From Escherichia coli (lineage in GTDB: Bacteria > Pseudomonadota > Gammaproteobacteria > Enterobacterales > Enterobacteriaceae), in assembly GCF_003790525.1 (NCBI RefSeq), contig NZ_CP033635.1: 64,000 nucleotides of DNA; one strand, given 5' to 3'. Made by a program: the position numbers and the translations under genes. Positions 20,159 to 36,351 of the stretch are shown here, in pieces (the stretch's first letter is position 1; each line of letters opens with the position of its first letter). The notes under the pieces were generated by a model that was not told the DNA's origin, searched no databases, and saw nothing but the letters and a program-made list of their open reading frames with translations.

Positions 20159-20683
20159 TTATGGGATGATACCACAGGCAATTCTTGCACCACCGCCACC
20201 TAGAGGTTCAGGATGGTCATCATGATTATCACCTCCTGCGTGGAGCATTAGCGAACGGCCATCGAGCTCCTTTAATTCAGATAGTCTTGGCGCAAGCACC
20301 GGGTAGGTTGCTTTTCCGTCATGAGTGACATAAAGCGCAGGGAGATCACCTAGGTGGCCATCAGGAGACCATGGACCGAGATGCTTCCCTGTTTTTTCCG
20401 GGTCAAAGTGACCACCTGCAGATAAAGCAGCGACAGTTTTTCCATCTTTCAGGGCAGGAGCACAACTTGCGTTTTCATGTACATGAAAACCATGAATGCC
20501 GGCGGGTAAGGAGTGAAGATCAGGGGTGAACAGCAGCCCGTAGGGTGTCTTCTGGATGGTTATTTTACCAATATTTCGCTCTTTTCCGTCACTATCAACA
20601 AGATTCATTGTTACATCTTTGGTGGCTGCATATCCACAGGATGATGTAGCCAGAATCACAAAGGCAATAAGTTTACGTTTCAT
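20159..20683 (-). CDS. sodC: Periplasmic Cu/Zn superoxide dismutase (horizontally acquired paralog)
   Basis: Signal peptide; Cu/Zn SOD motifs ...[10 protein letters not shown]..., ...[12 protein letters not shown]..., ...GDLPAL..., ...[10 protein letters not shown]... Confidence 0.85.
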
Positions 20684-20938
20684 AAACCCTCTGTTAACAG
20701 GTTAAAGATTTACTCAATAACTGTTGCGAAATAACAGTCAGCCAGATGATAGCTTATGATAGTTATTGAATGTGACTATCAGTGTAATTAATTATGCAAA
20801 TTAGAAGGAATGTTATGTGTGAAGCGCCCCTGTATCCCGCTCATACTGGCTAACCCAGACACGCAGAGTCTGTGGCGTACAGCCAGCATTTGAGGCAATG
20901 GAACAAATTACCCCAATTGTGAATCATACTCATCCTGT

Positions 20939-21491
20939 TTACCTCTTTCTCAGGGAGTTTAGTCTCCAGGATTCCCGGAGCAGTTCAAAGTGCCCTGTGC
21001 TGCTTAAAGTGCCGCTGCATGCCACCACATGGCTGAGCAGCAACAGGTATTGTTGTTCCTTCATGTTGTTCACGCAACCAGCGTAATACCACCGGCGAGG
21101 ATGGACTGTCAGTGTGATTACGTTCAGTAATACGTTCATAAAAGGAAGTTCAGAATGCATGAATCTGTTGTCCGTTGATGTTTCCTTCTGTCGAATTGTG
21201 TGTGAAGTGGACAATCAGAAAATGCGGCCAGTGATCCACTGCCTGTTGAATAAAACGCCGGATGTCTCCCGGCTCTGCAAGTAATGCTTCAGTTTCCTGC
21301 ACTATTTTATCCCTGTTGAATTTTGTCAAACCGGTGCAGACACGCAGGAAAGTATGCCAGCACTGGTGTAATGCCAGTAACATACAATAAGAATGAAATG
21401 ACGAATCAGTCAGGAAAGGGTGCCCCCATTGGCAACCCATTGACTGAGCAGAGGATACAATCAGGAAGGTTAACGAGAGTATCTCCGACAT
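20939..21491 (-). pseudogene. Fragmented copy of an island gene also present at 48328..49122
   Basis: ...IRRFIQQAVDHWPHFLIVHFTHNSTEGNINGQQIHAF... matches ...IRRFIQQAVDHWPRLLAVHFTLHSAEGNINGQQIHAF... at 48328..49122; two ORF pieces in different frames. Confidence 0.35.
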
Positions 21492-21559
21492 CAGGGGCAG
21501 GATTGATTTCTACAATACCAGCGCCGGCATTGAGCCTGTACATAGATTTATGTAATTGC

Positions 21560-22337
21560 CTGATTTTGATATGTTCAATTCAACATCAAATGAAAGCTAA
21601 ATTATGGACGACACACAATTGCAGGCTCTGGCTAACGAACTGGCCAAAAATCTCAAAACCCCTGAAGATCTCAGTCAGTTCGATCGCCTGCTCAAGAAAA
21701 TAAGTGTTGAGGCAGCTCTCAACGCTGAACTGACTCACCATCTGGGACATGAAAAAAATCAGACCAAATCGGGAACCAACTTCCGTAATGGCTATTCCAC
21801 GAAAACCGTCACCACTACCGACGGGCCGATGGAATTACGTACTCCACCTGATCGTGATGGTTCCTTCGAACCACAACTGGTGAAGAAAAATCAGACCCGC
21901 ATTACCGGCATGGACAACCAGATCCTGGCGCTGTATGCCAGAGGGATGACTACCCGCGAAATTACCTCAGCCTTCAAAGAAATGTACGACGCCGATGTCT
22001 CGCCCACGCTGATATCCAAAGTGACCGATGCGGTTAAAGAACAGGTCTCTGAATGGCAAAACCGACCGTTGGATGCACTGTATCCCATTGTTTATCTTGA
22101 CTGTATTGTGGTTAAGGTTCGTCACAGCGGGAGTGTCATTAACAAAGCGGTGTTCCTCGCGCTGGGCATCAATACCGACGGTCAGAAAGAGCTGCTGGAT
22201 ATGTGGCTGGCCGAAAATGAAGGTGCAAAGTTCTGGCTGAATGTACTGACGGAACTGAAAAATCGCGGCCTGAACGATATCCTTATCGCCTTCGTGGACG
22301 GCCTGAAAGGCTTCCCGGAAGCGATTAATGCCGTCTA
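21560..22337 (+). mobile_element. IS256-family copy, 3'-truncated, divergent 5' third
   Basis: Left-end motif TGTAATTGCCTGATTTTGATATGTTC; transposase ORF 21604..22395 nucleotide-identical to copy 2 from ...FEPQLVKKNQTRITGMDNQ... onward; homology ends at about 22337. Confidence 0.6.
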
Positions 22338-22705
22338 TCCCATAAAGCCGGATACGCTCATTTTGGGCGGGATCTCCACAAGCATATGGATATGATCTGC
22401 ACAGCACTCAGCTTCAAGAATCCGTACACTTTTCCACTCACACAGCTTTCTCAAAATACTGCCTGTTGCTTTACGCTTCTCTCTGTAGAACACTTTTCTT
22501 CGGTATTTTGGCGCAAAAACTATGTGATATTTACAGTTCCATCGGGTATGCGCTAAGCTCTTTTCGTTCCCCATTGGGACCCCCTTTTGATTTCTTGTTT
22601 GACACTTGCAGTTGCCAGACCGCAAGGTGTTTTAACAAATCAAAAGGGGTTTTAATAACTGGCTCAAAGCTGAAAGCTTTCCGGCCCCCAGCCTAGCTGG
22701 GGGTT
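22338..22705 (-). mobile_element. IS200 remnant: left end and first about 79 codons of tnpA
   Basis: MGNEKSLAHTRWNCKYHIVFAPKYRRKVFYREKRKATGSILRKLCEWKSVRILEAECCADHIHMLVEIPPKMSVSGFMG then stop; left-end palindrome CCCCCAGCCTAGCTGGGGG. Confidence 0.6.
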
Positions 22706-23810
22706 TTCTGTGCACAAAAATCCGGAAACGAGTGAGCGTTTCAGGATTCTTAAACAGACCCTGGATCGGTCAACTGCTCCTAAACTGATCGGCATTACAC
22801 CTGTCGGCTGCCGTTTTTTCAGCTCCGTGATCCATGGGCCGGGTTCTTTGGTCAGCAATGCTGCCGCCCTTGCCCCATGGATAAATAATGTCCGGTGGTA
22901 GGTATCCCCACGTTTGCTTATCCCCAGCATGCGAACCTTCCCAGCGGACCCCGTCTGCTTCGGCACCAGACAGACATAAGCGTCAAACTCACGTCCGGAT
23001 TTAAATGCTGAGGCCTCGCCCATGGTGGCGACCACCGCCGTAGCGATTAACGGCCCCACACCGGGGATTTCCATTAGGCGCTTACAGTTTTCGCTCTGCC
23101 GTGCCACGCTGTTAATCTGTTTATCAAGGCCATCTATCTGCATGCCCAGCTCACTCAGTCTGTTGTACTGGTATTCAAGCACAGTGATGAGATACGGCGG
23201 CAGGTTCGTCTTCATTCGCTCTAGGGCTGTCGGTAGCTTTCTGTCCATCGCTGTCCAATCTTTGTGGAGGATTTCACCAAACTCGAGGAGCGTGCCAAGG
23301 GTATTAATATGCGAGGTTCTGAACTTCACCAGTTGTCTGCGCGAACGGTGCAGGACCAGAACTGACTGCTTCTCTTCCGTTTTAACAGCGATATCTTTAC
23401 TGGGCTGCTGTACCGCCATCCAGATAGCACGCGCATCCATCACATCATTTTTGTTGCCCATGACGAATGCTTTAACGAAGCGAGCTTGCAACAGCCGAAC
23501 TTTGTGTCCCAGTTTTTTCCAGTTCCCTCGCCCAATGTTGGGAGCCTCCACAAGCCTCCATACCTATCAGACAGGGTTCCCGGTTGCTGAAGAACGTCAG
23601 AAAATCCTTGCTACGTAGCTGCTTGTCCACCACTTCGCCCGTGTACTCATTGATGAAGTGAACCTGAATCAGATACTTTGCGATATCAACGCCAACCGGT
23701 GTATATTTCATTTGTGGAGTCGCCAGTCTGAGGGCGCTTTTGCATCCCGTATTGGGCACTATGATGCCGGAAATCTGAGAGGCTCCACAGCAGACAATTT
23801 TACCCTTCAT
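22664..23810 (-). pseudogene. IS110-family transposase (second, different copy), frameshifted; element about 22706..23870
   Basis: N-terminal ORF 23472..23810 (...MKYTPVGVDIAKYLIQVHFI...) and C-terminal ORF 22664..23551 in different frames; C-terminal tail reads through into the IS200 hairpin. Confidence 0.6.
22685..22710 (+). terminator. IS200 left-end hairpin followed by T-run (terminator-like)
   Basis: Perfect 8-bp stem CCCCCAGC/GCTGGGGG followed by TTTTCT on the plus strand. Confidence 0.4.
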
Positions 23811-23950
23811 CCATCACAGTGCACCTCTCTTAACAGGGCAGGATGTGTTCAGTACATTTCTCCTTTTATGGTTACAGTTTATCCATCATGGCGTAATTGA
23901 AGGCTGTCGTGAAGGAGAGGAAGAGCATCTCATCACTTACAAACAAATAC

Positions 23951-23970
23951 ATTAATGATAACCATTTGCA
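23951..23970. promoter_or_regulatory. Fur-box-like sequence upstream of sitA
   Basis: ATTAATGATAACCATTTGCA resembles the GATAATGATAATCATTATC consensus (partial match). Confidence 0.4.
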
Positions 23971-23990
23971 TTTGTATAGATTATGCTATA

Positions 23991-24012
23991 AAACATAGCC
24001 GTTGCTATGTTT
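23991..24012. promoter_or_regulatory. MntR-type operator palindrome upstream of sitA
   Basis: AAACATAGCCGTTGCTATGTTT, inverted repeat AAACATAGC/GCTATGTTT, about 35 bp upstream of the sitA start. Confidence 0.55.
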
Positions 24013-24044
24013 GTTCTAATTTTGCTCACTATAGGTACTGAATT

Positions 24045-24959
24045 ATGCACTCAATAAAAAAATTAACCATGCTCTTGGGGTTCCTCGCCCTCACCTGCTC
24101 GATCGCATTTCAGGCGAGTGCAACTGAAAAATTCAAGGTCATTACAACATTTACCATCATCGCAGATATGGCCAAAAACGTGGCTGGAGATGTTGCAGAA
24201 GTCTCATCCATAACCAAGCCCGGTGCGGAAATTCATGAGTATCAGCCTACCCCTGGCGATATTAAACGTGCGCAGGGGGCACAACTGATTCTCGCCAATG
24301 GAATGAATCTGGAATTGTGGTTCCAGCGCTTTTACCAGCATCTCAATGGTGTTCCAGAAGTGATTGTCTCTTCGGGTGTGACGCCAGTAGGGATCACCGA
24401 AGGCCCCTACGAGGGAAAACCTAACCCTCATGCCTGGATGTCGCCAGATAATGCTTTGATTTACGTCGATAATATTCGTGATGCGTTGATAAAATACGAT
24501 CCGGCAAATGCAAAAACATACCAACGTAATGCCGATACTTATAAAGCCAAGATTACCCAAACCCTTGCCCCCCTGCGTAAGCAGATTGCTGAACTCCCTG
24601 AGAATAAAAGATGGATGGTCACCAGTGAAGGGGCTTTTTCTTATCTCGCACGCGATTTGGGGCTAAAAGAGCTTTATCTGTGGCCGATAAATGCCGATCA
24701 ACAAGGAACACCCCAGCAGGTACGTAAAGTGGTTGATATAGTGAAGAAAAATAATATCCCAGCGGTATTTAGTGAGAGTACGGTTTCCGATAAACCAGCG
24801 CGTCAGGTTGCGCGTGAAACCGGCGCACACTACGGCGGTGTGCTCTATGTCGATTCCCTGAGCACAGAAAACGGCCCGGTACCTACGTATATCGACCTTC
24901 TGAAGGTTACTACCAGTACGCTGGTGCAGGGAATTAAAGCCGGGAAAAGGGAGAAGTAA
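24045..24959 (+). CDS. sitA: Fe/Mn ABC transporter periplasmic binding protein SitA
   Basis: 304 aa, signal peptide, metal-binding SBP; first of four co-oriented overlapping genes. Confidence 0.9.
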
Positions 24960-25786
24960 TGATGCAATCTGCGGGTATTGTCGTTAATGGCGTTACTGTC
25001 ACCTGGCGTAACGGGCACACAGCACTGCGCGATGCATCCTTCACAGTACCAGGCGGATCTATTGCCGCTCTGGTTGGGGTAAACGGTTCCGGAAAATCGA
25101 CGTTATTTAAAGCGATTATGGGATTCGTGCGTCTGACTACCGGAAAGATATCTGTTCTGGGTATTCCCACGCGGCAGGCTCTGCAGAAAAACCTGATTGC
25201 CTACGTCCCGCAGTCAGAAGAAGTGGACTGGTCCTTTCCTGTACTGGTGGAAGATGTGGTGATGATGGGCCGCTATGGGCATATGGGTATGTTGCGTATA
25301 GCCAATAAGAGGGATCGTCAGGTTGTCACCGATGCGCTGGAACGTGTCGATATGGTAGATTTTCGCCATCGACAAATCGGCGAGCTTTCCGGTGGACAAA
25401 AGAAACGCGTCTTTCTGGCGAGAGCGATTGCACAGCAGGGTGATGTGATCCTGCTGGATGAACCTTTTACCGGCGTTGATGTGAAAACCGAAGCCAAAAT
25501 CATCAGCCTGTTGAGGGAGTTACGCGCGGAAGGCAAAACGATGCTTGTCTCAACGCACAATCTCGGATCCGTCACGACATTTTGCGATTATACGGTCATG
25601 GTCAAAGGCACCGTCCTGGCAAGCGGGCCGACAGACACCACTTTTACAGCCGAGAACCTGGAGCTGGCTTTTAGCGGCGTACTACGCCATGTCACACTTA
25701 AAGGCTCGGAAGAAAGCATTATTACTGACGATGAACGCCCCTTTGTGGCTTATCGACCATCAGCGGTGCAGAGGGAAGAAAGATGA
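24959..25786 (+). CDS. sitB: Fe/Mn ABC transporter ATPase SitB
   Basis: Walker [13 protein letters not shown] signature LSGGQKKR, Walker B ILLDEP. Confidence 0.9.
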
Positions 25787-26640
25787 ACGTGCTACTGGAA
25801 CCCTTCAGCTATGAATATATGCTCAATGCGATGTGGGTCGCGGCGATGGTCGGCGGTCTCTGCGCTTTCCTGTCATGCTATCTGATGCTAAAAGGCTGGT
25901 CGCTGATTGGCGATGCGCTGTCGCACTCTATCGTCCCGGGTGTTGCGGGGGCATATATGCTGGGGCTTCCGTTTTCTCTGGGGGCCTTCTTTTCCGGTGG
26001 ACTGGCTGCGGGCAGCATGCTGTTTCTTAACCAACGCACTCGCTTAAAAGAAGATGCCATCATCGGCCTGATCTTCTCGTCCTTTTTTGGCCTGGGGCTG
26101 TTTATGGTGTCATTAAACCCGACATCCGTAAATATTCAGACCATCGTCCTGGGCAATATTCTGGCAATCGCTCCGGCGGATATCCTGCAACTCACTATCA
26201 TTGGCATTGTCTCAGTCATAGTGCTCTTTTTCAAATGGAAAGATCTTATGGTGACCTTTTTCGACGAGAATCACGCCCGTGCTATTGGATTATATCCAGG
26301 AAGATTAAAAATCCTCTTCTTCACACTGCTGGCGGTATCGACCGTTGCAGCATTGCAAACGGTTGGGGCTTTTCTGGTGATCTGTCTGGTAGTGACCCCT
26401 GGCGCAACAGCATGGTTGTTAACCGATCGTTTTCCCCGCCTGCTCGTGATTGCTGTAACTATTGGCAGTGTAACCAGTTTCCTCGGCGCGTGGGTCAGTT
26501 ACTTTCTGGACGGAGCGACAGGTGGAATCATCGTGGTGGCGCAGACACTGCTGTTTCTTTTAGCATTTGTCTTTGCACCCACCCATGGGCTTTTGGCAAA
26601 TCGTCAGCGTGCGCATAAGGTGCTGGAGGATCGCTCATGA
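25783..26640 (+). CDS. sitC: Fe/Mn ABC transporter permease SitC
   Basis: 285 aa polytopic membrane protein, overlapping start/stop with sitB and sitD. Confidence 0.9.
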
Positions 26641-27515
26641 TGGCATTATTACTGGAGCCACTGCAGTTCACCTTTATGAGTCACGCACTGCTGATTTCAC
26701 TGGTAGTTTCCATACCCTGTGCGCTGCTGTCGGTCTTTCTGGTCCTGAAAGGTTGGGCACTGATGGGAGACGCGATGAGTCATGCGGTTTTTCCTGGTAT
26801 CGTGCTTGCGTGGATACTGGGTTTTCCTCTGGCGGGAGGAGCATTCGTCGCCGGAGTATTCTGCGCGGTGGCGACGGGATACCTGAAAGACAACAGCCGA
26901 ATCAAGCAAGATACAGTGATGGGGATTGTTTTTTCTGGCATGTTTGCCGCAGGTCTGATCTTGTATATTGCAGTCAAACCCGACGTACATCTTGACCATA
27001 TTCTTTTCGGCGACATGCTCGGGGTAACCATCGGCGATATAATCCAGACGGTGATTATTGCCGGGCTGGTTACACTTGTTATTAGCGTAAAATGGCGGGA
27101 TTTTTTGCTGTTCAGCTTTGATTATCAACAGGCGCAGGTAAGCGGTTTGCATACGAGATGGCTGCATTATGGGCTGCTGTGCATGGTCTCTCTGACCATT
27201 GTGGCGACGCTGAAAGCGGTAGGTATCATTCTCTCCATTTCTCTGCTCATTGCGCCTGGCGCCATTGCGGTACTCCTGACGCAACGCTTTCATATTGCGC
27301 TCCTGCTGGCGCTCGGTATATCGGTAATGGTCTCAATGACTGGTGTATGGCTCTCCTTTTTTATAGACAGCGCACCAGCACCAACGATTGTTATCTTATT
27401 CACGGTTGTATTCATCCTGACGTTTACCGCTTCCAGCATCAATGCTCACGCGAAGGAAAATGTCGATCCACAGGATCTCCCGACTAGTACAACAACCAGA
27501 GAGCAACATCTGTAG
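26637..27515 (+). CDS. sitD: Fe/Mn ABC transporter permease SitD
   Basis: 292 aa polytopic membrane protein. Confidence 0.9.
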   Translation: MMALLLEPLQFTFMSHALLISLVVSIPCALLSVFLVLKGWALMGDAMSHAVFPGIVLAWILGFPLAGGAFVAGVFCAVATGYLKDNSRIKQDTVMGIVFSGMFAAGLILYIAVKPDVHLDHILFGDMLGVTIGDIIQTVIIAGLVTLVISVKWRDFLLFSFDYQQAQVSGLHTRWLHYGLLCMVSLTIVATLKAVGIILSISLLIAPGAIAVLLTQRFHIALLLALGISVMVSMTGVWLSFFIDSAPAPTIVILFTVVFILTFTASSINAHAKENVDPQDLPTSTTTREQHL

Positions 27516-30104: not shown

Positions 30105-32306
30105 TCAGAATAATACTGAGTAACTCAGACCAAAGGTGCGGCCCCTGCCTTTGTAGCCGTACAGTGAAGCAGGGCCGTAACCCGGGCTGTAGTACAGTGG
30201 CGCACGCTGCCCCCAGACAGTGGTGTAGTCACGGTCGAAGAGGTTTTCAATGCTGAAGCTGAGTGTACCCACCGGAAGCTGATAACTGCCAAGCAAATCG
30301 ACGATGGTATAGCCATCGACCTTGTAGCCCTGCGCGTCGCTCACGTCAAAGGAGGTGGTGCTCTGCACTCGCAGACTCCACGGGTCCGGTGCCCAGCCAA
30401 TGTAGGCTGTCGCTTTTGATGGGCTTGCTGTCTTCACATCGTATTTCTGCCAGGTACCGTTCACTTTCGACTCAGTTTTCAGCACGTTGAAGTTCACTCC
30501 GGTACTCCAGTCAGTATCAGGAATCAGGTAGTCCACCGCACCTTCCACGCCGTAAATACGGCGTTTGTCGTCCACCACACTGATGGTCAGATCTTTATTC
30601 GCCACCACGCTCTTATCAGAAATCGAATAGTAGGCCGCGATTTGGGTGCGCAGATTATTGCCAGTAAAGCGCCAGCCCAGCTCATAAGAATCGACTTTCA
30701 CGCCTTCCAGCTTGCTGTCGCTGACGTTCACACTCTTTGTTAGAGGAAGATGGCCGTTCACTGCAGCACCATAGATGCCGCGACCATAGTATTTACCCGG
30801 GTCCGGCAGCTCCACGCCCTGGGAGAAGTTGAGCCATGCCTGCTGGCGTTCGGTGATATGCATCAGCAGACCAGCGTTGAACAGGAAGTTGTCGTAATCG
30901 ACTGAGCCGCCAGGAATGGCGTCGGCGGATATAGCCTTCCCGGCGGCAATCTGCCGTTGCTGCGCGTAGCCGATGAAATCATCAATCTTGTTTTCAGTGT
31001 ACTGATAGCGTACGCCACCGTTGAGGGTAAAGAGATTATTGATGTCATAGCCTGATTGCAGGAAGACCGCCAGGTTGGTGATGTCATATGACGGATAGCG
31101 CCCGGTGGTGTAAATCTTCTTGTTGTTCAGCCCTCCGGAAGCGCTTGCTTGAGCCAGGTCGAAGAACATCTGGTTGGAGGTAAAGCGCTCATGATCAGCA
31201 TCCAGCCCCCAGGTGATTTGCCAGCCGTCCATCGGTTTGCTGTTCAGAGTCAGTTTCATGCCGTACTGGTCGGTGTCCTGCTGTGACGAAGAGAAAGCCG
31301 TCACCTGTTTGTTCGCATTTACCGTCGGGAACGGGTAGAATCGCAACGACTCATCGCGGTAGTAAACCTGACCGACCAGCTCCTGTCCCAGGAAAGCGCT
31401 GTCAGAGTACTGCAGGCTGATCAAATGCCGCTCAGTGCCGGGAATACGGTCGGAATTCAGCCCGTTACTGACGAAGGGCGTGCTGGTCCCTCTGATGGCA
31501 GAGAAGCCTTTCCCGAGATTAAGCCCGTAATCGTCGTCGCCCTGGCTTTTATAGTACTGTGTGATCAACTGAAGCTGCCGGGATTCATCGATGTTCAACG
31601 TTCCAGTTCCCATGATGTCCAGCCGATCGGAGTACTGCAGGCCGGTCTGGGTGTTATCAAGCAGGGTGGCATCGCCGTTACCGTCAAACCAGCCGCCAAA
31701 TTTCTGATATGCCACGGAAAGACGTCCGGAGATATGCTCATTTCCGCCGGAGACAGCTCCGGCAATGCGTTCATCGTGATCTTTACTGCTGCTAAAGCCA
31801 CTTTTGGTGCCAGCCTCAAACTCCTTCATGGTTTCCGGCTGGCCTTTTTTGCTCACGATGTTGATCAGGCCACCGGTACTGCCGCCGCCATACAGGGACG
31901 TCGCACCGGAGATCACTTCAATATGGTCGATATTAAAAGGATCTATAGAGTCCAGTTGTCGGCTGTCGGTACGTGAAGAGTTGAGACGCACGCCGTCAAC
32001 CAGCACGACCAGCGGGCGGCCACGCACATTCATACCGTAGTTGGTGCGGCTCCGGCTGCTGACGTCAAGGCCAGGGATCAGCTGAGCCAGTGCGTCCTTA
32101 AGCTCTTTGCCGCCCTGAATCTGCTGTTCCAGTTCGGCGTTTTCGATAACCCAGGTGGTTTGTGCCATCTCCGCTACGGTGCGATTGCTGCGGTTGGCAG
32201 ACACCACGAACGTTTCATCATCGGTTTGTTGAGCGACTGCTGGCGCCATCATGGTAAGAAGCAGTGGGTTGAGAGCCCAAAGCGTATACTTTTTGCTTAT
32301 CATCAT
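30105..32306 (-). CDS. iutA: Ferric aerobactin TonB-dependent outer-membrane receptor IutA
   Basis: 733 aa, signal peptide, TonB-dependent receptor plug and barrel, C-terminal ...YSVLF. Confidence 0.95.
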   Translation of the reverse strand: MMISKKYTLWALNPLLLTMMAPAVAQQTDDETFVVSANRSNRTVAEMAQTTWVIENAELEQQIQGGKELKDALAQLIPGLDVSSRSRTNYGMNVRGRPLVVLVDGVRLNSSRTDSRQLDSIDPFNIDHIEVISGATSLYGGGSTGGLINIVSKKGQPETMKEFEAGTKSGFSSSKDHDERIAGAVSGGNEHISGRLSVAYQKFGGWFDGNGDATLLDNTQTGLQYSDRLDIMGTGTLNIDESRQLQLITQYYKSQGDDDYGLNLGKGFSAIRGTSTPFVSNGLNSDRIPGTERHLISLQYSDSAFLGQELVGQVYYRDESLRFYPFPTVNANKQVTAFSSSQQDTDQYGMKLTLNSKPMDGWQITWGLDADHERFTSNQMFFDLAQASASGGLNNKKIYTTGRYPSYDITNLAVFLQSGYDINNLFTLNGGVRYQYTENKIDDFIGYAQQRQIAAGKAISADAIPGGSVDYDNFLFNAGLLMHITERQQAWLNFSQGVELPDPGKYYGRGIYGAAVNGHLPLTKSVNVSDSKLEGVKVDSYELGWRFTGNNLRTQIAAYYSISDKSVVANKDLTISVVDDKRRIYGVEGAVDYLIPDTDWSTGVNFNVLKTESKVNGTWQKYDVKTASPSKATAYIGWAPDPWSLRVQSTTSFDVSDAQGYKVDGYTIVDLLGSYQLPVGTLSFSIENLFDRDYTTVWGQRAPLYYSPGYGPASLYGYKGRGRTFGLSYSVLF

Positions 32307-32387
32307 TATTCCTCCACACGGGCGGAAAAAATCAGCCCAAAGATGCTGTGTAGCGAGTTAAAGAAGCAGCCTCCGGCTGCGTTTTCC

Positions 32388-33665
32388 CTAGGTGCCGCTG
32401 CGCCACTGAATCAGGGCGGGCGGCATACTGAGATCGAATAAATCACGTCCCATTACACGATTAAGAATACGTGCAGATCTCCATGCCATCAGGCTGAGCT
32501 GAGGTTCGGCGATGCCATGGGTTTGCATACTGGCGTTGACCACGAAGATGTTGTTCTCTTTCGGGCCACTCCATTCCAGAGTGAAGTCATCACGCACTTT
32601 AAAGGTGTTCTTATCGTGCATGGTGATCAGCGGCATCAGTGAGGGAAGTATTTGTGGCAACGCAGAACGGTAACCTGTGGCGAAAATCACCACATCACTT
32701 TCCAGGCTCTCCCTGCCCTGATCCAGATGATGCTCCATCAGCAACTTCCAGCCAGGACCACTACTTTCCAGAGTTGTTACCGAGCGGCTGGGTAGCAGAC
32801 GGATATTTCTTGGTTTTCTCAGAACTTCAAAACGGTGGTACAACTCACGATAAATGGTCAGTAAAGAATCGGCAGTGATGCCATCCGATGTCATTTTCTG
32901 CTCATCCAGTAACTGATGGCGAATATCTTCCTCCAGTCCGGAGAAGCCTGAAATATATTCAGGTGTAAAATACTCATCAGCAAAAGCAGCCTCATCCAGT
33001 GCGTTAAAATTATTCCGCCGGGAGATCCAGTTTATTTCCGCCGCTTCTCCCCATTCCCCGCGTAATGCATTAAGGAACAGGTCTGCACCACTCTGTCCTC
33101 CACCAACCACGGTTACCCGTTTTTCACTAAGGTCCGGCCGACGAAGATTCATTTCACTGGCATGGAAACAGGATTGTGTCATATGCTTCACACAGGGTGG
33201 TAAATAAGGTTGTTTTCCTGTACCAAGGCAGATATTGTGGGCAAAATATTCTCCCCGGCTGGTTTGCACCAGAAACAATCGACGTTTTTTATCGAAATCA
33301 ATGTTTTCAACGGTATGACTGAAATACAGGTTATTCATATCTTCAGCAGCCCAGCGGAGGTAGTCAGAAAACTCTTCACGGGATACTGTACGTAGTCTGC
33401 TTGTAAGGAAGCGATAGAACTTTTTGTGCTTCACCAGATAGTTAACAAAGCTGTAGGGATTTGTAGGTGCAACAGCACTGACCAGATCTTTCAGAAAGAC
33501 GGTCTGCATATGACAATCCGGTACCAGCATACCCGGATGCCAGGAAAAATGAGGATGTTCATCAAAGAAGAGACAGTCCAGTTCTTCGATCTGATGTGAC
33601 AACGCAGCAATGCTGAGATTAAATGGCCCTGTCCCTACACCAATAAAATCGACACTTTTTTTCAT
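32388..33665 (-). CDS. iucD: L-lysine N6-monooxygenase IucD
   Basis: 425 aa, N-terminal FAD-binding GVGTGPFNLS, second dinucleotide motif VVGGGQSG. Confidence 0.95.
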   Translation of the reverse strand: MKKSVDFIGVGTGPFNLSIAALSHQIEELDCLFFDEHPHFSWHPGMLVPDCHMQTVFLKDLVSAVAPTNPYSFVNYLVKHKKFYRFLTSRLRTVSREEFSDYLRWAAEDMNNLYFSHTVENIDFDKKRRLFLVQTSRGEYFAHNICLGTGKQPYLPPCVKHMTQSCFHASEMNLRRPDLSEKRVTVVGGGQSGADLFLNALRGEWGEAAEINWISRRNNFNALDEAAFADEYFTPEYISGFSGLEEDIRHQLLDEQKMTSDGITADSLLTIYRELYHRFEVLRKPRNIRLLPSRSVTTLESSGPGWKLLMEHHLDQGRESLESDVVIFATGYRSALPQILPSLMPLITMHDKNTFKVRDDFTLEWSGPKENNIFVVNASMQTHGIAEPQLSLMAWRSARILNRVMGRDLFDLSMPPALIQWRSGT

Positions 33666-35404
33666 GATTCATATTCCTGAGTTACCAGCCACAGCGGATT
33701 TTGCAGATCCTCAAGGTAATTCGGCAGCATGCGGCTGCCGCCATCCAGATCAGGCCAGGTCAGTTTTACCGGGTTCAGCACCACGCGAATGATTTGTGGC
33801 CTGAAAAGTGAGAAAAGCGCAAAACGCTCTGACATTTGTGGATGTTTTTTCATGTAATCACTCAACACTGCTGCCAGCAGTTGATAAAATCGCCGTTCAG
33901 GTACGCCAAGACGAACCATCAGTGGCGAAATAAAACGCAGTACTGTCACGAAGTGACCCGTCTGCAAATCATGGATTAAGTAGTCCGCACTCAGGCGGGA
34001 TGTAACATCACGAACCTCCTGAGGCAAAGAGTCCATTTCGGGGAACTCTTCTTTCACCAGCCGCATATCGCCCTGGAAGTCTTTCAGCAGAACACGCTGT
34101 GGAACCCCCTTTTTCATGGCGAGCGTTATATTTTGTCCATGTGCAATAAGCGCGACACCGTAGCGGCAAAGCAGGTGATACAGAGGAACCACGACCACCC
34201 GGAACAGTTGCGTAAGCCAGGTTTCAGCGTCCAGCCCGGAGCGGTCTATATATGCGCCTGCCAGCGGCTGATCGTTTTCGTCGCACTCCATCAGTGTTGC
34301 CATCAGAACCGGACTTTCATCCGGTTTCAGCCAGCGGCACGGATTCTCCCGCCAGATAACACCAAGCATTTCCTGGTAGCGATAGGGAGCCCGGGCAAGC
34401 GCGGCATAGCCTTCATGGGAGACATAGCCTGCAGCCGGTTCACCAAGGATCACTGCACCGCTTTGCACCAGGGTAGCGTCGGTCGCAAAAACCTGTTGTA
34501 GCCAGCGTGAAGCCAGTGGTCCGGCAGCGATGTATCTGCCAGGAATCCCCCGGTAGCATGAGGTGTTGTAGATGGTCAGCGGCAGCTTGATATCCAGCCC
34601 ACCCCGGCGACTGGCGTTGGTCAGGGTACGCAGCGACTGCTGGGCGAGCCACTGGTCGCCAAACTCGCCGAGAGACACCATCCTGCCTTCGGCAAAATCA
34701 GCGATGAAGTCGGTGGCGATTTTTTGCTGCCACTGCCACGGATGTACAGGCAGCGGCAGCCAGTTATGATCCAGTCCGTTTTCCTGCCAGACCTGACTGA
34801 AGCGGGCAAACTCCTGCGGATCCATTGCGGCCGTCAACAACTGATGAATATCCATCTCGTTATCACAGCGCCAGATCATATGTTCACGTTTTACCGCCAG
34901 CCAGTGCAGTCTAAAGGTGTTGGCATACTCTGGCGCATATCGTTCCAGCGCCTCTTTACCCCAGCCACGGCGACCTTTATTAAAAACGAATTTAGGATGA
35001 CCGCTCAGCAGGCATTGCAGGCGGTCGGCACTAAGATTAATCAGGTCACTGGCGCTCAGCCCGCGACGGGCTTTCAGCAGTTGCAGGTCGCCCAGCAGCG
35101 TGGAATACAAATCCTGCATATGCTCAGCAACGGTTGCATCGCTCATTGACAGTACCTGCTTTAGCTGCATCAGCAGCGTCTGAGCCAGTACTGGCTCGTC
35201 CGCGCAGCGCAGAGTTTGAGCATCAATCCAGAGCCAGCCCCAGATACCACGTTCAGCGATGAAGCGCCATTGTGCTCCCGGCAGGTTAATGCAGTAGCGG
35301 TCATCGCCCTGAGATTCCGCGTGGAAAACCTGCTCATACTCCAGCTCAGACAACATTTTTGCCACCAAGCGGCGGTTGACCAAATCCCAGTCTTTGTGAT
35401 TCAT
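33662..35404 (-). CDS. iucC: Aerobactin synthase IucC
   Basis: 580 aa IucA/IucC-family siderophore synthetase; start overlaps iucB stop. Confidence 0.95.
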   Translation of the reverse strand: MNHKDWDLVNRRLVAKMLSELEYEQVFHAESQGDDRYCINLPGAQWRFIAERGIWGWLWIDAQTLRCADEPVLAQTLLMQLKQVLSMSDATVAEHMQDLYSTLLGDLQLLKARRGLSASDLINLSADRLQCLLSGHPKFVFNKGRRGWGKEALERYAPEYANTFRLHWLAVKREHMIWRCDNEMDIHQLLTAAMDPQEFARFSQVWQENGLDHNWLPLPVHPWQWQQKIATDFIADFAEGRMVSLGEFGDQWLAQQSLRTLTNASRRGGLDIKLPLTIYNTSCYRGIPGRYIAAGPLASRWLQQVFATDATLVQSGAVILGEPAAGYVSHEGYAALARAPYRYQEMLGVIWRENPCRWLKPDESPVLMATLMECDENDQPLAGAYIDRSGLDAETWLTQLFRVVVVPLYHLLCRYGVALIAHGQNITLAMKKGVPQRVLLKDFQGDMRLVKEEFPEMDSLPQEVRDVTSRLSADYLIHDLQTGHFVTVLRFISPLMVRLGVPERRFYQLLAAVLSDYMKKHPQMSERFALFSLFRPQIIRVVLNPVKLTWPDLDGGSRMLPNYLEDLQNPLWLVTQEYES

Positions 35405-36351
35405 TACAGACCGACCTCCGTGAAGAAGTGATGACGATCCGCCATCACCATGCGCGAGCGTTTATGTGGGAAGTCGAACTCTTTAATTGTCCGGTATCCC
35501 GCAGGCTCAAGATGGCGGAACAGGCGCTGGTTATCGGTGCGTGGCTCCAGTACTGTGCGCTGCGTACGTGGCTCATTCAGCAGCAGGTAATGTGTCACCC
35601 CGCGCAGCCAGCTTTGCACATAGTGGGCTCCGCGCCATTGCTGTTCACCAACCAGCAGATGCAGGCCACGGTCAAAGGGCTGCCACGAATAGTGGCGACC
35701 AATGCGGTCTTCCGCCGCCCAGTAGATTTCGAAATAACTGAACGGCCGATCGTCGAAACAACCAATCAGCGGGAATGCATGTTTACTGGTGAGCTGGCGT
35801 TCCAGATAGGCGATCTGTACCTCCAGTGAGCCACTTTGCTCCCAGAAATACTCAACGCGCGGATCGTTCATCCAGCGAGTGAAACGTTCTGCATCAGAAA
35901 CGGGATCGGCAATGCGGAAACTCAGCATCCTGCGAATGCGTGGATCGTAACGACGATAAACTTCACCCTGCGGACGGGGGGGGCGCTGCGGGAAATAAAT
36001 CTCACGCTCTGCATCAAAAACCATTTCACCGGAGGCCCGGTTTGCCGGAGAACTCAGCCATAACGGTAACTGCCAGAAAGCGGAACGATGGATAATGTCG
36101 CTTTGTACCTGTCCGAAAAGCGTCAGCGCCTGTGGCTCCTCACACCATTCGGACCAGGGAAGAACCACTGCTGAAAGTTGTGGTGCGGCGATAAATATCT
36201 GATCCAGCGCGTCGCACAGCCATCCTGTTGGCAGCTCCCCGGGCCAGTGCAACACCGCGCTATTGTCCAGCCCCCAGCCAAGATTCAGAGGCTTGTCGAG
36301 TTTTTCACAGCGCAGTCCATATCCGCTGTGAACAATGTTTGCCCCAGACAT
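35404..36351 (-). CDS. iucB: N6-hydroxylysine O-acetyltransferase IucB
   Basis: 315 aa acetyltransferase. Confidence 0.95.
   Translation of the reverse strand: MSGANIVHSGYGLRCEKLDKPLNLGWGLDNSAVLHWPGELPTGWLCDALDQIFIAAPQLSAVVLPWSEWCEEPQALTLFGQVQSDIIHRSAFWQLPLWLSSPANRASGEMVFDAEREIYFPQRPPRPQGEVYRRYDPRIRRMLSFRIADPVSDAERFTRWMNDPRVEYFWEQSGSLEVQIAYLERQLTSKHAFPLIGCFDDRPFSYFEIYWAAEDRIGRHYSWQPFDRGLHLLVGEQQWRGAHYVQSWLRGVTHYLLLNEPRTQRTVLEPRTDNQRLFRHLEPAGYRTIKEFDFPHKRSRMVMADRHHFFTEVGL

Follow-up and report, generated by a model that had tools for sequence, protein, structure and literature searches.

The locus analysed here is very likely a stack of dead insertion sequences (IS) lying 5' of sitABCD in the E. 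coli sit–aerobactin island. Its IS256-family member, copy A, is a broken remnant that has probably swapped short patches with a relative 20 kb away, a case of ordinary decay. Genome counts refer to comparisons of parts of the window (the whole stretch of DNA analysed, 64,000 nt) with 5,426 complete E. coli genomes. The 1,261-bp structure around copy A was 100% identical in 53 of these. Misassembly classically arises at IS copies, and a collapsed or chimeric assembly would be one source of such a structure; this is extremely improbable, since 53 complete genomes, sequenced independently and drawn from several continents and hosts, contain the same 1,261 bp, which have unique flanks on both sides. 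The larger fragments are already annotated in RefSeq, where they are labelled as partial IS genes. In the literature on ISEc39 and IS1414 we found genome-survey mentions only and nothing on the present locus.

Copy A is a truncated IS256-family element

21532 to 22337, plus strand: copy A, IS256-family, X lineage; the 5' 806 bp (61%) of a 1,314-bp element, with no right end
21532 to 21576, plus strand: left terminal inverted repeat region of copy A, GAGCCTGTACATAGATTTATGTAATTGCCTGATTTTGATATGTTC, which aligns with other left ends
21604 to 22395, plus strand: truncated transposase open frame from the ORF list, 263 aa

The X lineage, represented by NZ_CP119000 (1091127-1092440) and the IncF plasmid CP055749, is a sister of IS1414. 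Its identity to PGAP-named IS1414 is only about 81%, and to ISEc39 it is 67-90%. Positions 21532-21861 of copy A are 97% identical to the X-lineage copies L005 and P. The first-pass annotation had started the element at 21560; we place its left end at 21532, where the terminal inverted repeat begins (GAGCCTGTA) and where, at 21531/21532, the left flank departs from that of other copies. This end aligns with the left ends of L003, L005, L006 and L012, of a full-length copy further downstream (copy B) and of a third remnant (remnant C).

The protein encoded by copy A matched Pfam Transposase_mut (PF00872; E=7e-74, profile positions 17-246 of 379), which places it, like that of copy B, among the Mutator/IS256-type DDE transposases. 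Codons 1-245 of the frame are of IS256 type, and the last 18 codons are antisense IS200 read-through to a chance stop. Of three motifs that we take to mark the regions of the IS256 catalytic D, D, E triad, YLDCI (residue 164) and VDGLKG (231) are present and AIESLN (337 in copy B) lies beyond the truncation, which leaves the triad incomplete. Terminal repeats are likewise found at the left only (21532-21576), the right one having been deleted at 22337. PGAP labels the gene 'IS256 family transposase, partial, missing C-terminus'. Copy A is a fragment of an IS256-family member, an incomplete element, and because both the right end and the region of the third catalytic residue are absent it is predicted to be immobile.

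An EAST1 (astA) frame such as that of IS1414 was considered and rejected. Judged against what we take to be the astA sequence, the ATG is kept at the equivalent place in copy A and in the X lineage. Copy A is truncated 12 nt past this ATG, and in the X-lineage copies, X and P, reading of the aligned sequences gave a stop after 12 codons.

10800 to 11080, minus strand: remnant C, more divergent IS256-family; left end plus about 70 degenerate codons

For remnant C, the terminal motif recognized by the first-pass annotation held up, but the extent given there (10633 to 11075) did not: only about 10800/10863-11080 is IS256-like, on the minus strand. Positions 10863-11080 matched positions 1-223 of copy B in blastn (74% identity, E=4e-34), and protein-level similarity runs on in another frame to about 10800. 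A Pfam search of its 66-aa open frame gave no match.

Copy A abuts an IS200C fragment within a nested IS stack

22336 to 22337, no strand: illegitimate junction between copy A and IS200C, with a 2-bp microhomology TA (4/5 matches over TAYCC)
22336 to 22720, minus strand: IS200C, 5' 385 bp; tnpA-proximal end, 5' untranslated region and tnpA codons 1-79 (22338-22574)
22721 to 22796, minus strand: IS4-like terminal 76 bp, from the terminal repeat AATGCCGATCAG through a hairpin and T-run just upstream of insG
22797 to 23810, minus strand: IS110-family transposase remnant, frameshifted, interrupted by the IS4 end and short of its 33 C-terminal codons

Copy A ends at 22337, where the minus-strand IS200 fragment begins, as first annotated. 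The two had been described as fused head-to-tail; they actually meet tail-to-tail, as convergent elements with their 3'-truncated ends abutting. At the junction the window reads GCCGTCTATCCCATAAAG, against GCCGTCTACCCGGAG in X and CAGATATCCCATAAAG in IS200C. The far limit of the IS200 fragment, formerly set at 22705, extends to 22720, with the element ends defined by comparing two intact IS200C copies in different flanks.

The fragment is 97-98% identical to intact IS200C copies and matched Pfam Y1_Tnp (PF01797; E=1e-21, profile positions 2-69 of 121), making it a partial Y1 (HUH) transposase gene. Of the two ends carrying subterminal hairpins, only the tnpA-proximal one is retained, the distal 325 bp being absent. 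The sole match in an Rfam scan of 20800-24100 was STnc490, in the IS200C leader (22584-22705, minus strand, 133.7 bits).

Positions 22721-22796 are 91-92% identical to the insG-proximal IS4 end in more than 2,600 genomes. This fragment, which has the IS4 terminal repeat and no transposase gene, is not annotated in RefSeq. The IS110-family remnant beyond it matched Pfam Transposase_20 (PF02371; E=4e-20) and fell below the cut-off of 29 for PF01548, the DEDD-type N-terminal domain (21.6 bits). Its DNA is 91% identical to an intact, annotated IS110-family gene at L012, with homology ending exactly at 22797, and PGAP labels it 'frameshifted; missing C-terminus'. Neither the 76-bp IS4 fragment nor the truncated IS110-family element appeared in the first-pass annotation, which also lacked the recombinants between A and B described below.

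The elements are nested, with the IS200C start inside the terminal 76 bp of IS4 and IS4 inside the IS110-family element. The junctions of the IS200 start with IS4 and of the IS4 end with IS110 look like normal insertions, and only 22336/7 is illegitimate. In strain SC418 (L012), the homologous flank position is taken up by an intact IS256-family element bracketed by the 8-bp duplication CTGGCATT, and an intact IS110-family element lies beyond it in the same order and orientation as in the window, which is possibly the ancestral layout.

From this arrangement, IS4 would have inserted near the 3' end of the IS110-family element, and IS200C would then have inserted into the IS4 T-run after the hairpin near the insG start. 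An X-lineage copy A would already have been present a few hundred bp away, at the flank position of the intact SC418 element. One illegitimate deletion could then have joined position 806 of A to position 385 of IS200C at the TA microhomology, removing the right 508 bp of A, most of IS4, the IS110 3' end and the right half of IS200C.

IS fragments abound in the island, many of them truncated independently, and IS200C copies on ColV-type plasmids are truncated elsewhere, for example at the equivalent of 22381, as might be expected if A and IS200 had been truncated separately and the intervening DNA then lost, or if an inversion had preceded a deletion. Such a multi-step history is unlikely, as only one junction of the stack goes beyond ordinary insertion and its microhomology is typical of a single illegitimate join. 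The loss of both 3' halves in one deletion, already proposed in the first-pass annotation, would be the most parsimonious explanation of the junction, since only this one is non-transpositional; no undeleted ancestor was found in the 5,426 genomes. Specifically, a chimeric query of flank, copy A and X-type tail recovered no undeleted, full-length A at the sodC-side site, the only near-full matches being hybrids of A and B, and an intact IS200C beside the present IS4/IS110 remnant occurred in 0 of 5,426 genomes at a coverage of at least 80%. A plasmid origin of the IS200–IS110–sitA arrangement was also considered and rejected, as no plasmid carries it; what plasmids do show is limited to distant relatives of the IS110 element (ISEc11, about 80%) and IS200C copies beside ets genes that are truncated at other points.

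Copy B is a full-length element and a simple insertion

41619 to 42932, plus strand: copy B, ISEc39-like, full-length (1,314 bp), with two X-type patches; 99% ISEc39 outside them
41611 to 41618 (left) and 42933 to 42940 (right), no strand: 8-bp target-site duplication of copy B, ATTCTGAA, read directly

The ends of copy B read GAGACTGTAATTAAAATTGTGTAATTGCC (left) and GACCCTGTAAATAATTCTGTGTAACTGCC (right, reverse complement). A target-site duplication of 8-9 bp, as is typical of the IS256 family, is found at both copy B and the L012 element. The empty form of the site, with one ATTCTGAA copy, is contiguous in many genomes; together with the 8-bp duplication, this identifies copy B as a simple insertion. 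The protein matched Transposase_mut over nearly its whole profile (E=3e-114, positions 12-373 of 379). A -1 frameshift lies in an A-run at 42808 (A6, compared with A7 in ISEc39), and restoring it yields a 402-aa protein. PGAP labels the gene simply 'IS256 family transposase'.

Overall, copy B is 96.1% identical to PGAP-named ISEc39. Forty-one of the 52 differences fall within the two X-type patches (41959-42058 and 42298-42373), and copy B is a recombinant derivative.

Copies A and B share an identical mosaic block

21863 to 22325, plus strand: 463-nt block in copy A, 100% identical to 41949-42411 of copy B; internal mosaic
41949 to 42411, plus strand: 463-nt block in copy B, 100% identical to the block in A

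The blocks lie 20,086 bp apart on the same strand, as determined by pairwise alignment and a map of informative sites. The sharp identity boundary that the first-pass annotation had predicted for a dot plot is present, with 463 nt at 100% set against about 65% over the 330 nt 5' of the block. The chance of 463 consecutive matches is ~2e-33 at an average identity of 85% and ~2e-87 at 65%. Identity had been placed from about codon 90 of the transposase onward; it begins at codon 87 (frame start 21604), but it runs only to 22325; between there and the truncation, copy A has 12 more nt, which differ from B at 4 sites.

Lineages were mapped at 341 sites informative between ISEc39 (E) and its sister lineage X, which are 67% identical in segment 1 and 90% in segment 4. 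Within the block, 21863-21972 is X-type, 21990-22197 ISEc39-type and 22212-22325 X-type. Along its whole length, copy A reads X-X-E-X-X (X 104/108, X 28/29, E 47/49, X 12/12, X 4/4) and copy B reads E-X-E-X-E-E (E 107/108, X 27/29, E 47/49, X 12/12, E 4/4, E 137/139). The breakpoints sit in islands of 10, 17, 14 and 38 nt where X and E are identical, and the two blocks have a private variant in common (22041/42127). Donor-type tracts thus lie within recipient-type sequence in both copies: copy B has E-type sequence on either side of 41959-42373, with intact flanks and target duplication, and copy A has X-type sequence on either side of 21990-22197.

Both copies are therefore recombinants of ISEc39 and the X lineage, with patterns that require exchange in both directions. 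Recombination between two IS256-family lineages had been proposed in the first-pass annotation to account for the 5' third of copy A; the proposal is supported, but the mosaic is not confined to that third, as copy B is a mosaic as well.

Copies A and B probably exchanged sequence in place

We propose that copy A and the full-length ISEc39-type copy B, 20 kb apart in direct orientation, traded sequence both ways by homologous (homeologous) recombination or gene conversion, presumably with the help of RecA. Copy A would have gained an ISEc39-type patch of about 210 bp, and copy B would have gained X-type sequence on each side of its ISEc39-type patch, producing the shared X-E-X block of 463 bp. 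The three-segment pattern in B could reflect either two conversion events or one with patchy mismatch repair. The crossovers would have landed in the 10-38-nt identity islands. Efficient RecA recombination is usually quoted as needing roughly 25-30 nt of identity, so that simple RecA exchange may not apply at islands of 10-17 nt, and another mechanism may have operated at these shortest crossover points. As no intermediates were found, the order, number and location of these events rest on parsimony.

A and B might instead have inserted as recombinants already, with the block inherited from a common X-E-X hybrid in circulation. The three lineages examined are mutually patchy, which means that recombination is not unique to the island, and no pre-conversion state was found at the island sites: the patches are present in every one of the 64 genomes that have B there and of the 51-53 that have A. 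Searches for an unpatched B (flank, canonical ISEc39, flank) and an unpatched A (flank, X-type, IS200) at their sites returned patched copies only, with best matches of 97.2% and 96.2%, respectively. Nevertheless, we regard prior hybrid descent as distinctly unlikely. At 99% identity or more, the 5,426 genomes contain 53 matches to A and about 65 to B, and the island plus two deletion derivatives account for them; moreover, an X-backbone and an E-backbone element share the exact 463 nt at 100%, private variant included, which is hard to explain without direct copying. Exchange in place between A and B remains our preferred reading.

Recombination between the blocks would delete sitABCD and aerobactin

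The identical block would act as a direct repeat, and crossing-over between A and B would delete the sitABCD–aerobactin interval. An exact recombinant of this kind exists in two E. coli genomes, strains 702/18 and EF5-18-41. It is composed of the A 5' part, the block, the B 3' part and the B right flank; sit and iuc are absent, and the missing interval of 20,086 bp corresponds to sitABCD–iucABCD/iutA. Over 1,984 bp the two genomes show no difference, and they have a SNP in common, which makes it possible that both go back to one event.

In principle, a crossover in the 463-nt block can also run in reverse, and one event interconverts the two arrangements. The hybrid could accordingly be the ancestor, with a circular sit–aerobactin module integrating into a single hybrid element to give A and B. 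This is very improbable, given that copy B has a perfect 8-bp target duplication with flanks contiguous in many genomes, that the hybrid's own left flank, …CCGGCATT, does not match its right flank, ATTCTGAA…, and that the arrangement with A and B is found in 51-53 genomes versus 2 for the hybrid. We hold to deletion from the two-copy arrangement.

A bolder and very improbable idea is that the A/B pair makes the 20-kb sitABCD–aerobactin module a recombination cassette, the bidirectional patching being the footprint of repeated cycles of excision and integration and not of simple gene conversion. If so, crossing-over in the block would release a circle made up of the module and one hybrid IS256-family copy, and the circle could re-integrate by homologous recombination at any ISEc39 or X-lineage copy, including those on X-carrying IncF plasmids. 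This would amount to a transposase-independent shuttle of virulence and fitness genes between the chromosome and ColV-type plasmids.

Comparison with known systems

None of the fragments works as a mobile element, and they have little importance beyond bookkeeping. The 463-bp block, however, explains one-step loss of sitABCD and aerobactin in some strains, which is relevant to their use as ExPEC/APEC markers. The mosaics also call for caution when overall percent identity is used to type or date copies of the IS256 family, such as ISEc39, IS1414 and their relatives.

Copy B resembles ISEc39 in its 1,314-bp length, its terminal repeats and its 8-bp target duplication, and differs from it in the -1 frameshift near its 3' end and in two stretches of X-lineage sequence, about 110 and 115 nt long, where its identity to ISEc39 is 78% and 90%. 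In copy A, the likeness to ISEc39 is limited to the central patch, where 21990-22197 is 98% ISEc39-type. Elsewhere copy A follows the X lineage, being 97-99% identical in 21532-21989 and 22200-22337 with an identical left terminal repeat, and it departs from that lineage in the foreign ISEc39 patch and in lacking the right 508 bp. The IS200C fragment differs from the intact element in lacking the other 73 codons together with the distal end and in stopping at an internal, non-transpositional junction.

Mosaic IS1, IS3 and IS30 elements in enterics were reportedly described by Lawrence, Ochman and Hartl in 1992. PMC3004938 and PMC3205602 are examples of papers that discuss how IS copies undergo ectopic recombination and gene conversion. 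The present locus resembles ectopic gene conversion in having sharply bounded donor tracts in a diverged paralogue with unchanged flanks, and IS-flanked deletion in that direct repeats, here the A/B block, mediate loss of the interval. Textbooks already cover mosaic IS copies, deletions at microhomologies and deletions mediated by IS. Compared with known IS gene conversion, both partners lie side by side here, each with the other's tracts, and belong to lineages that are 67-90% identical, which makes the A/B pair a tidy example and not a new process.

Genomic setting and anatomy of the IS elements

The window, a chromosomal island of Escherichia coli, contains many IS fragments; its features include the following.

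20159-20683: sodC
21532-22337 (+): copy A, truncated IS256-family element
22336-22720 (-): IS200C fragment, tnpA-proximal 385 bp, 97-98% identity to intact IS200C
22721-22796: terminal 76 bp of IS4, 91-92% identical to the IS4 end
24045-27515: sitABCD
30105-38139: iutA and iucDCBA
41619-42932 (+): copy B, full-length IS256-family element

In 53 of 5,426 complete E. coli genomes, the 1,261 bp around the junction of copy A with IS200 recur without a single difference. RefSeq labels copy A "IS256 family transposase (partial, missing C-terminus)", the IS200 fragment "IS200/IS605 family transposase (partial)" and the neighboring IS110 remnant "IS110 family transposase (frameshifted, partial)". The basic anatomy of this stretch is thus real, reproducible and previously annotated.

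The terminal repeat GAGCCTGTACATAGATTTATGTAATTGCC… marks the left end of copy A at 21532, exactly where the flanks of other copies diverge. Its product matches Pfam Transposase_mut (E=7e-74) at profile positions 17-246 of 379 only, and the final 18 codons of its open frame (21604-22395) are antisense IS200 sequence. Copy A cannot transpose, since it is without a right end and its frame ends before the AIESLN motif region found in B, which by our motif-to-triad assignment is presumably the site of the third catalytic residue. Any activity retained by the truncated protein, such as binding to IS ends, is speculation.

Copy B (1,314 bp, both ends present) is 96.1% identical to PGAP-named ISEc39 copies. 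It is flanked by a perfect 8-bp target duplication (ATTCTGAA), and its two flanks are contiguous with a single repeat copy in many other genomes (the empty site), so it is a simple transposition insertion. A -1 frameshift at 42808 in an A-run (A6 versus A7 in named ISEc39) swaps out the last 17 residues of its transposase, and a 402-aa protein results when the base is restored. Named ISEc39 copies that were compared carry frameshift annotations too, at positions other than that of B. Downstream, a YadA-like adhesin gene contains 99-nt tandem repeats (95% identical) at 44215-44629, as well as a 106-nt repeat with a spacing of 309 nt.

A third IS256-family remnant on the minus strand has the left terminal motif in common (GAGAGTGTAATTTAAATTTTGTAATTGCCTGTTTTTGATATGTTC), as the first-pass annotation had recognized, and matches ISEc39 at 74% identity over 10863-11080 (E=4e-34), with frame-shifted protein similarity on to ~10800. 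The extent originally given (10633..11075) is too long, as no recognizable IS256 likeness was found from 10639 to ~10800; an IS66 copy ends at 10638. On this left side of the island, at 4088-10638, IS66-family fragments broken up by IS21/IS100-type elements are connected by a number of long inverted repeats (128-613 nt, 88-95% identical), forming a second nested IS graveyard.

Both IS256-family copies are mosaics

Aligned globally (21540-22420 with 41626-42520), A and B are ~65% identical up to 21862 and 100% identical to 22325, beyond which divergence resumes. With block limits set after adding lineage references to the alignment, the identical block covers 21863-22325 (41949-42411 in B), 463 nt on the same strand in copies 20,086 bp apart. 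The probability of such a run is ~2e-33 even at 85% average identity, so it is not a chance outcome. The sharp boundary described in the first-pass annotation, at about codon 90, is present, with identity starting at codon 87 of the frame beginning at 21604. The identical stretch falls short of the truncation, contrary to the earlier description; it stops at 22325, and four sites in the last 12 nt of A (22326-22337) differ from B.

To map lineages, A and B were aligned with PGAP-named ISEc39 (E; reference L003) and with X, an unnamed sister lineage of IS1414 (full-length reference L005, plus plasmid copy P), chosen as the lineage matching the 5' third of A. X shares ~81% identity with PGAP-named IS1414 and 67-90% with E, varying by segment.

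Lineage assignment of copies A and B by segment. Coordinates are those in A; counts are sites matching the named lineage among informative sites (those at which X differs from E).
Segment 1, 21532-21861: A, X 104/108; B, E 107/108
Segment 2, 21862-21989: A, X 28/29; B, X 27/29
Segment 3, 21990-22199: A, E 47/49; B, E 47/49
Segment 4, 22200-22325: A, X 12/12; B, X 12/12
Segment 5, 22326-22337: A, X 4/4; B, E 4/4
Segment 6, missing from A: B, E 137/139

Copy A is X-type apart from a ~210-bp central ISEc39 patch, and copy B is of ISEc39 type except in two X-type patches, one on either side of segment 3, which together hold 41 of its 52 differences from ISEc39. Recombination between two IS256-family lineages had been proposed earlier with A as the only recombinant; the informative sites bear out the recombination, but B is a mosaic too. 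A private variant (22041/42127) is common to both copies, and the four switch points sit in stretches of 10, 17, 14, and 38 nt where X and E are identical.

The simplest history would be exchange between A and B in both directions, in which segment 3 of A would derive from B or another ISEc39 and the X-type sequence of B from A. This would have taken at least two events or one with patchy heteroduplex repair. All matches of ≥99% to either copy (53 records for A, ~65 for B) are accounted for by this island, and unconverted A or B is found at these sites in 0 of 5,426 genomes ("unpatched" constructs had best matches of 96.2% and 97.2%), which argues that the exchange took place between A and B themselves, within this island. 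The right-hand switch of B is within 12-50 nt of the truncation point of A, which suggests, more weakly, that A was already truncated when serving as template for B.

Nested insertions and the probable deletion junction

The ends of IS200C were defined by comparing two intact copies with different flanks. The fragment holds tnpA codons 1-79 (Pfam Y1_Tnp, E=1e-21), and the leader/sRNA region of this dead element is intact, since it still matches Rfam STnc490, an Hfq-binding sRNA, over the full length (22584-22705, minus strand, 133.7 bits; family gathering score 56). In all three IS200C copies inspected (window 22700-22750; L007 975-1010; L008 975-1010), the tnpA-proximal end is directly behind a short flanking hairpin and then a T-run, a terminator-like arrangement that suggests a target preference; in the window, this hairpin is the one just upstream of insG in IS4. 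In ColV-type plasmids (L009, NZ_CP104534, 6000-6334), IS200C is cut beside etsABC at another internal point, corresponding to window 22381, so internal truncation of IS200C is recurrent.

Copy A and IS200C are convergent and thus join tail-to-tail, not head-to-tail as first described. Comparison of the window (GCCGTCTATCCCATAAAG), X (GCCGTCTACCCGGAG) and IS200C (CAGATATCCCATAAAG) places the crossover in the dinucleotide TA (22336-22337), inside a 4-of-5 match TAYCC.

The 76-bp IS4 fragment includes the terminal repeat and the hairpin and T-run just upstream of insG, and IS200C sits in this T-run. The IS4 terminus adjoins an IS110-family transposase gene that is 33 codons short at the boundary, with homology to an intact relative in strain SC418 (91%) beginning exactly at 22797. 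We read these layers as a probable insertion of IS4 into the IS110-family element, followed by insertion of IS200C into IS4. The junctions among these three are all normal insertion junctions and that of A with IS200C is the sole illegitimate one, so the single deletion originally proposed to have truncated both elements is the most economical account. Such an event would have taken the right 508 bp of A together with a spacer, the 3' end of IS110, ~1.35 kb from IS4, and 325 bp from IS200C. We infer this event rather than observe it, since no undeleted ancestor is present among the 5,426 complete E. coli genomes.

In SC418, where a 77%-identical flank is present, its homologous position is occupied by an intact IS256-family element bounded by an 8-bp duplication (CTGGCATT), and an intact IS110-family element comes next in the same order and orientation as in the window, plausibly the older arrangement. 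A and the SC418 element are inserted at the same point of paralogous flanks, which belong to the "UCP030791 putative phage-derived protein" gene family (window 21030-21531 versus 48407-49088; SC418 locus 3714-5772), and the third paralogue (48407-49088) is uninterrupted. Flank identity (77%) is similar to IS identity (82%), as if flank and IS had diverged as one unit. In some RefSeq records the IS110-family remnant is entered as "IS110 family RNA-guided transposase"; the non-coding 5' end of this remnant (23811-24044), just upstream of sitA, has no match in Rfam.

Loss of the sit and aerobactin genes

Strain 702/18, then EF5-18-41, were found during the search for full-length A. Each has a single hybrid element consisting of the flank and 5' part of A, the block, and the 3' part and right flank of B, directly adjoining the genes located after B in the window. 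Both are missing the 20,086-bp interval with the IS200, IS4, and IS110 remnants, sitABCD, iutA-iucABCD, and an MFS transporter gene. The hybrid is the derived state, resulting from crossing-over between A and B inside the block, because B is flanked by a target duplication and its empty site occurs in other genomes, in contrast to the mismatched flanks of the hybrid. Strains 702/18 and EF5-18-41 do not differ over 1,984 bp and have one SNP relative to the window in common, and so may represent one event rather than two. In strain 98232, the IS200 fragment is itself cut after ~95 bp by IS1203 (IS3-family) and sitABCD is absent (L013, 5207-6568), a further, independent route to sit loss from this island.

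Relation to known systems

The first interpretation of this locus was largely right, if incomplete. No paper dealing with this locus emerged from literature searches; ectopic recombination and conversion between copies of IS elements is an established subject (e.g., PMC3004938, PMC3205602). The finding is real and is ordinary IS decay, with one tidy feature, that the bidirectional mosaic is also the substrate through which the sit–aerobactin module is lost. The components all belong to described families, namely IS256 (ISEc39 and the unnamed IS1414 sister lineage), IS200C, IS4, and IS110, and the processes are all standard: nested insertion, microhomology-mediated deletion, ectopic IS conversion, and deletion between direct IS repeats.
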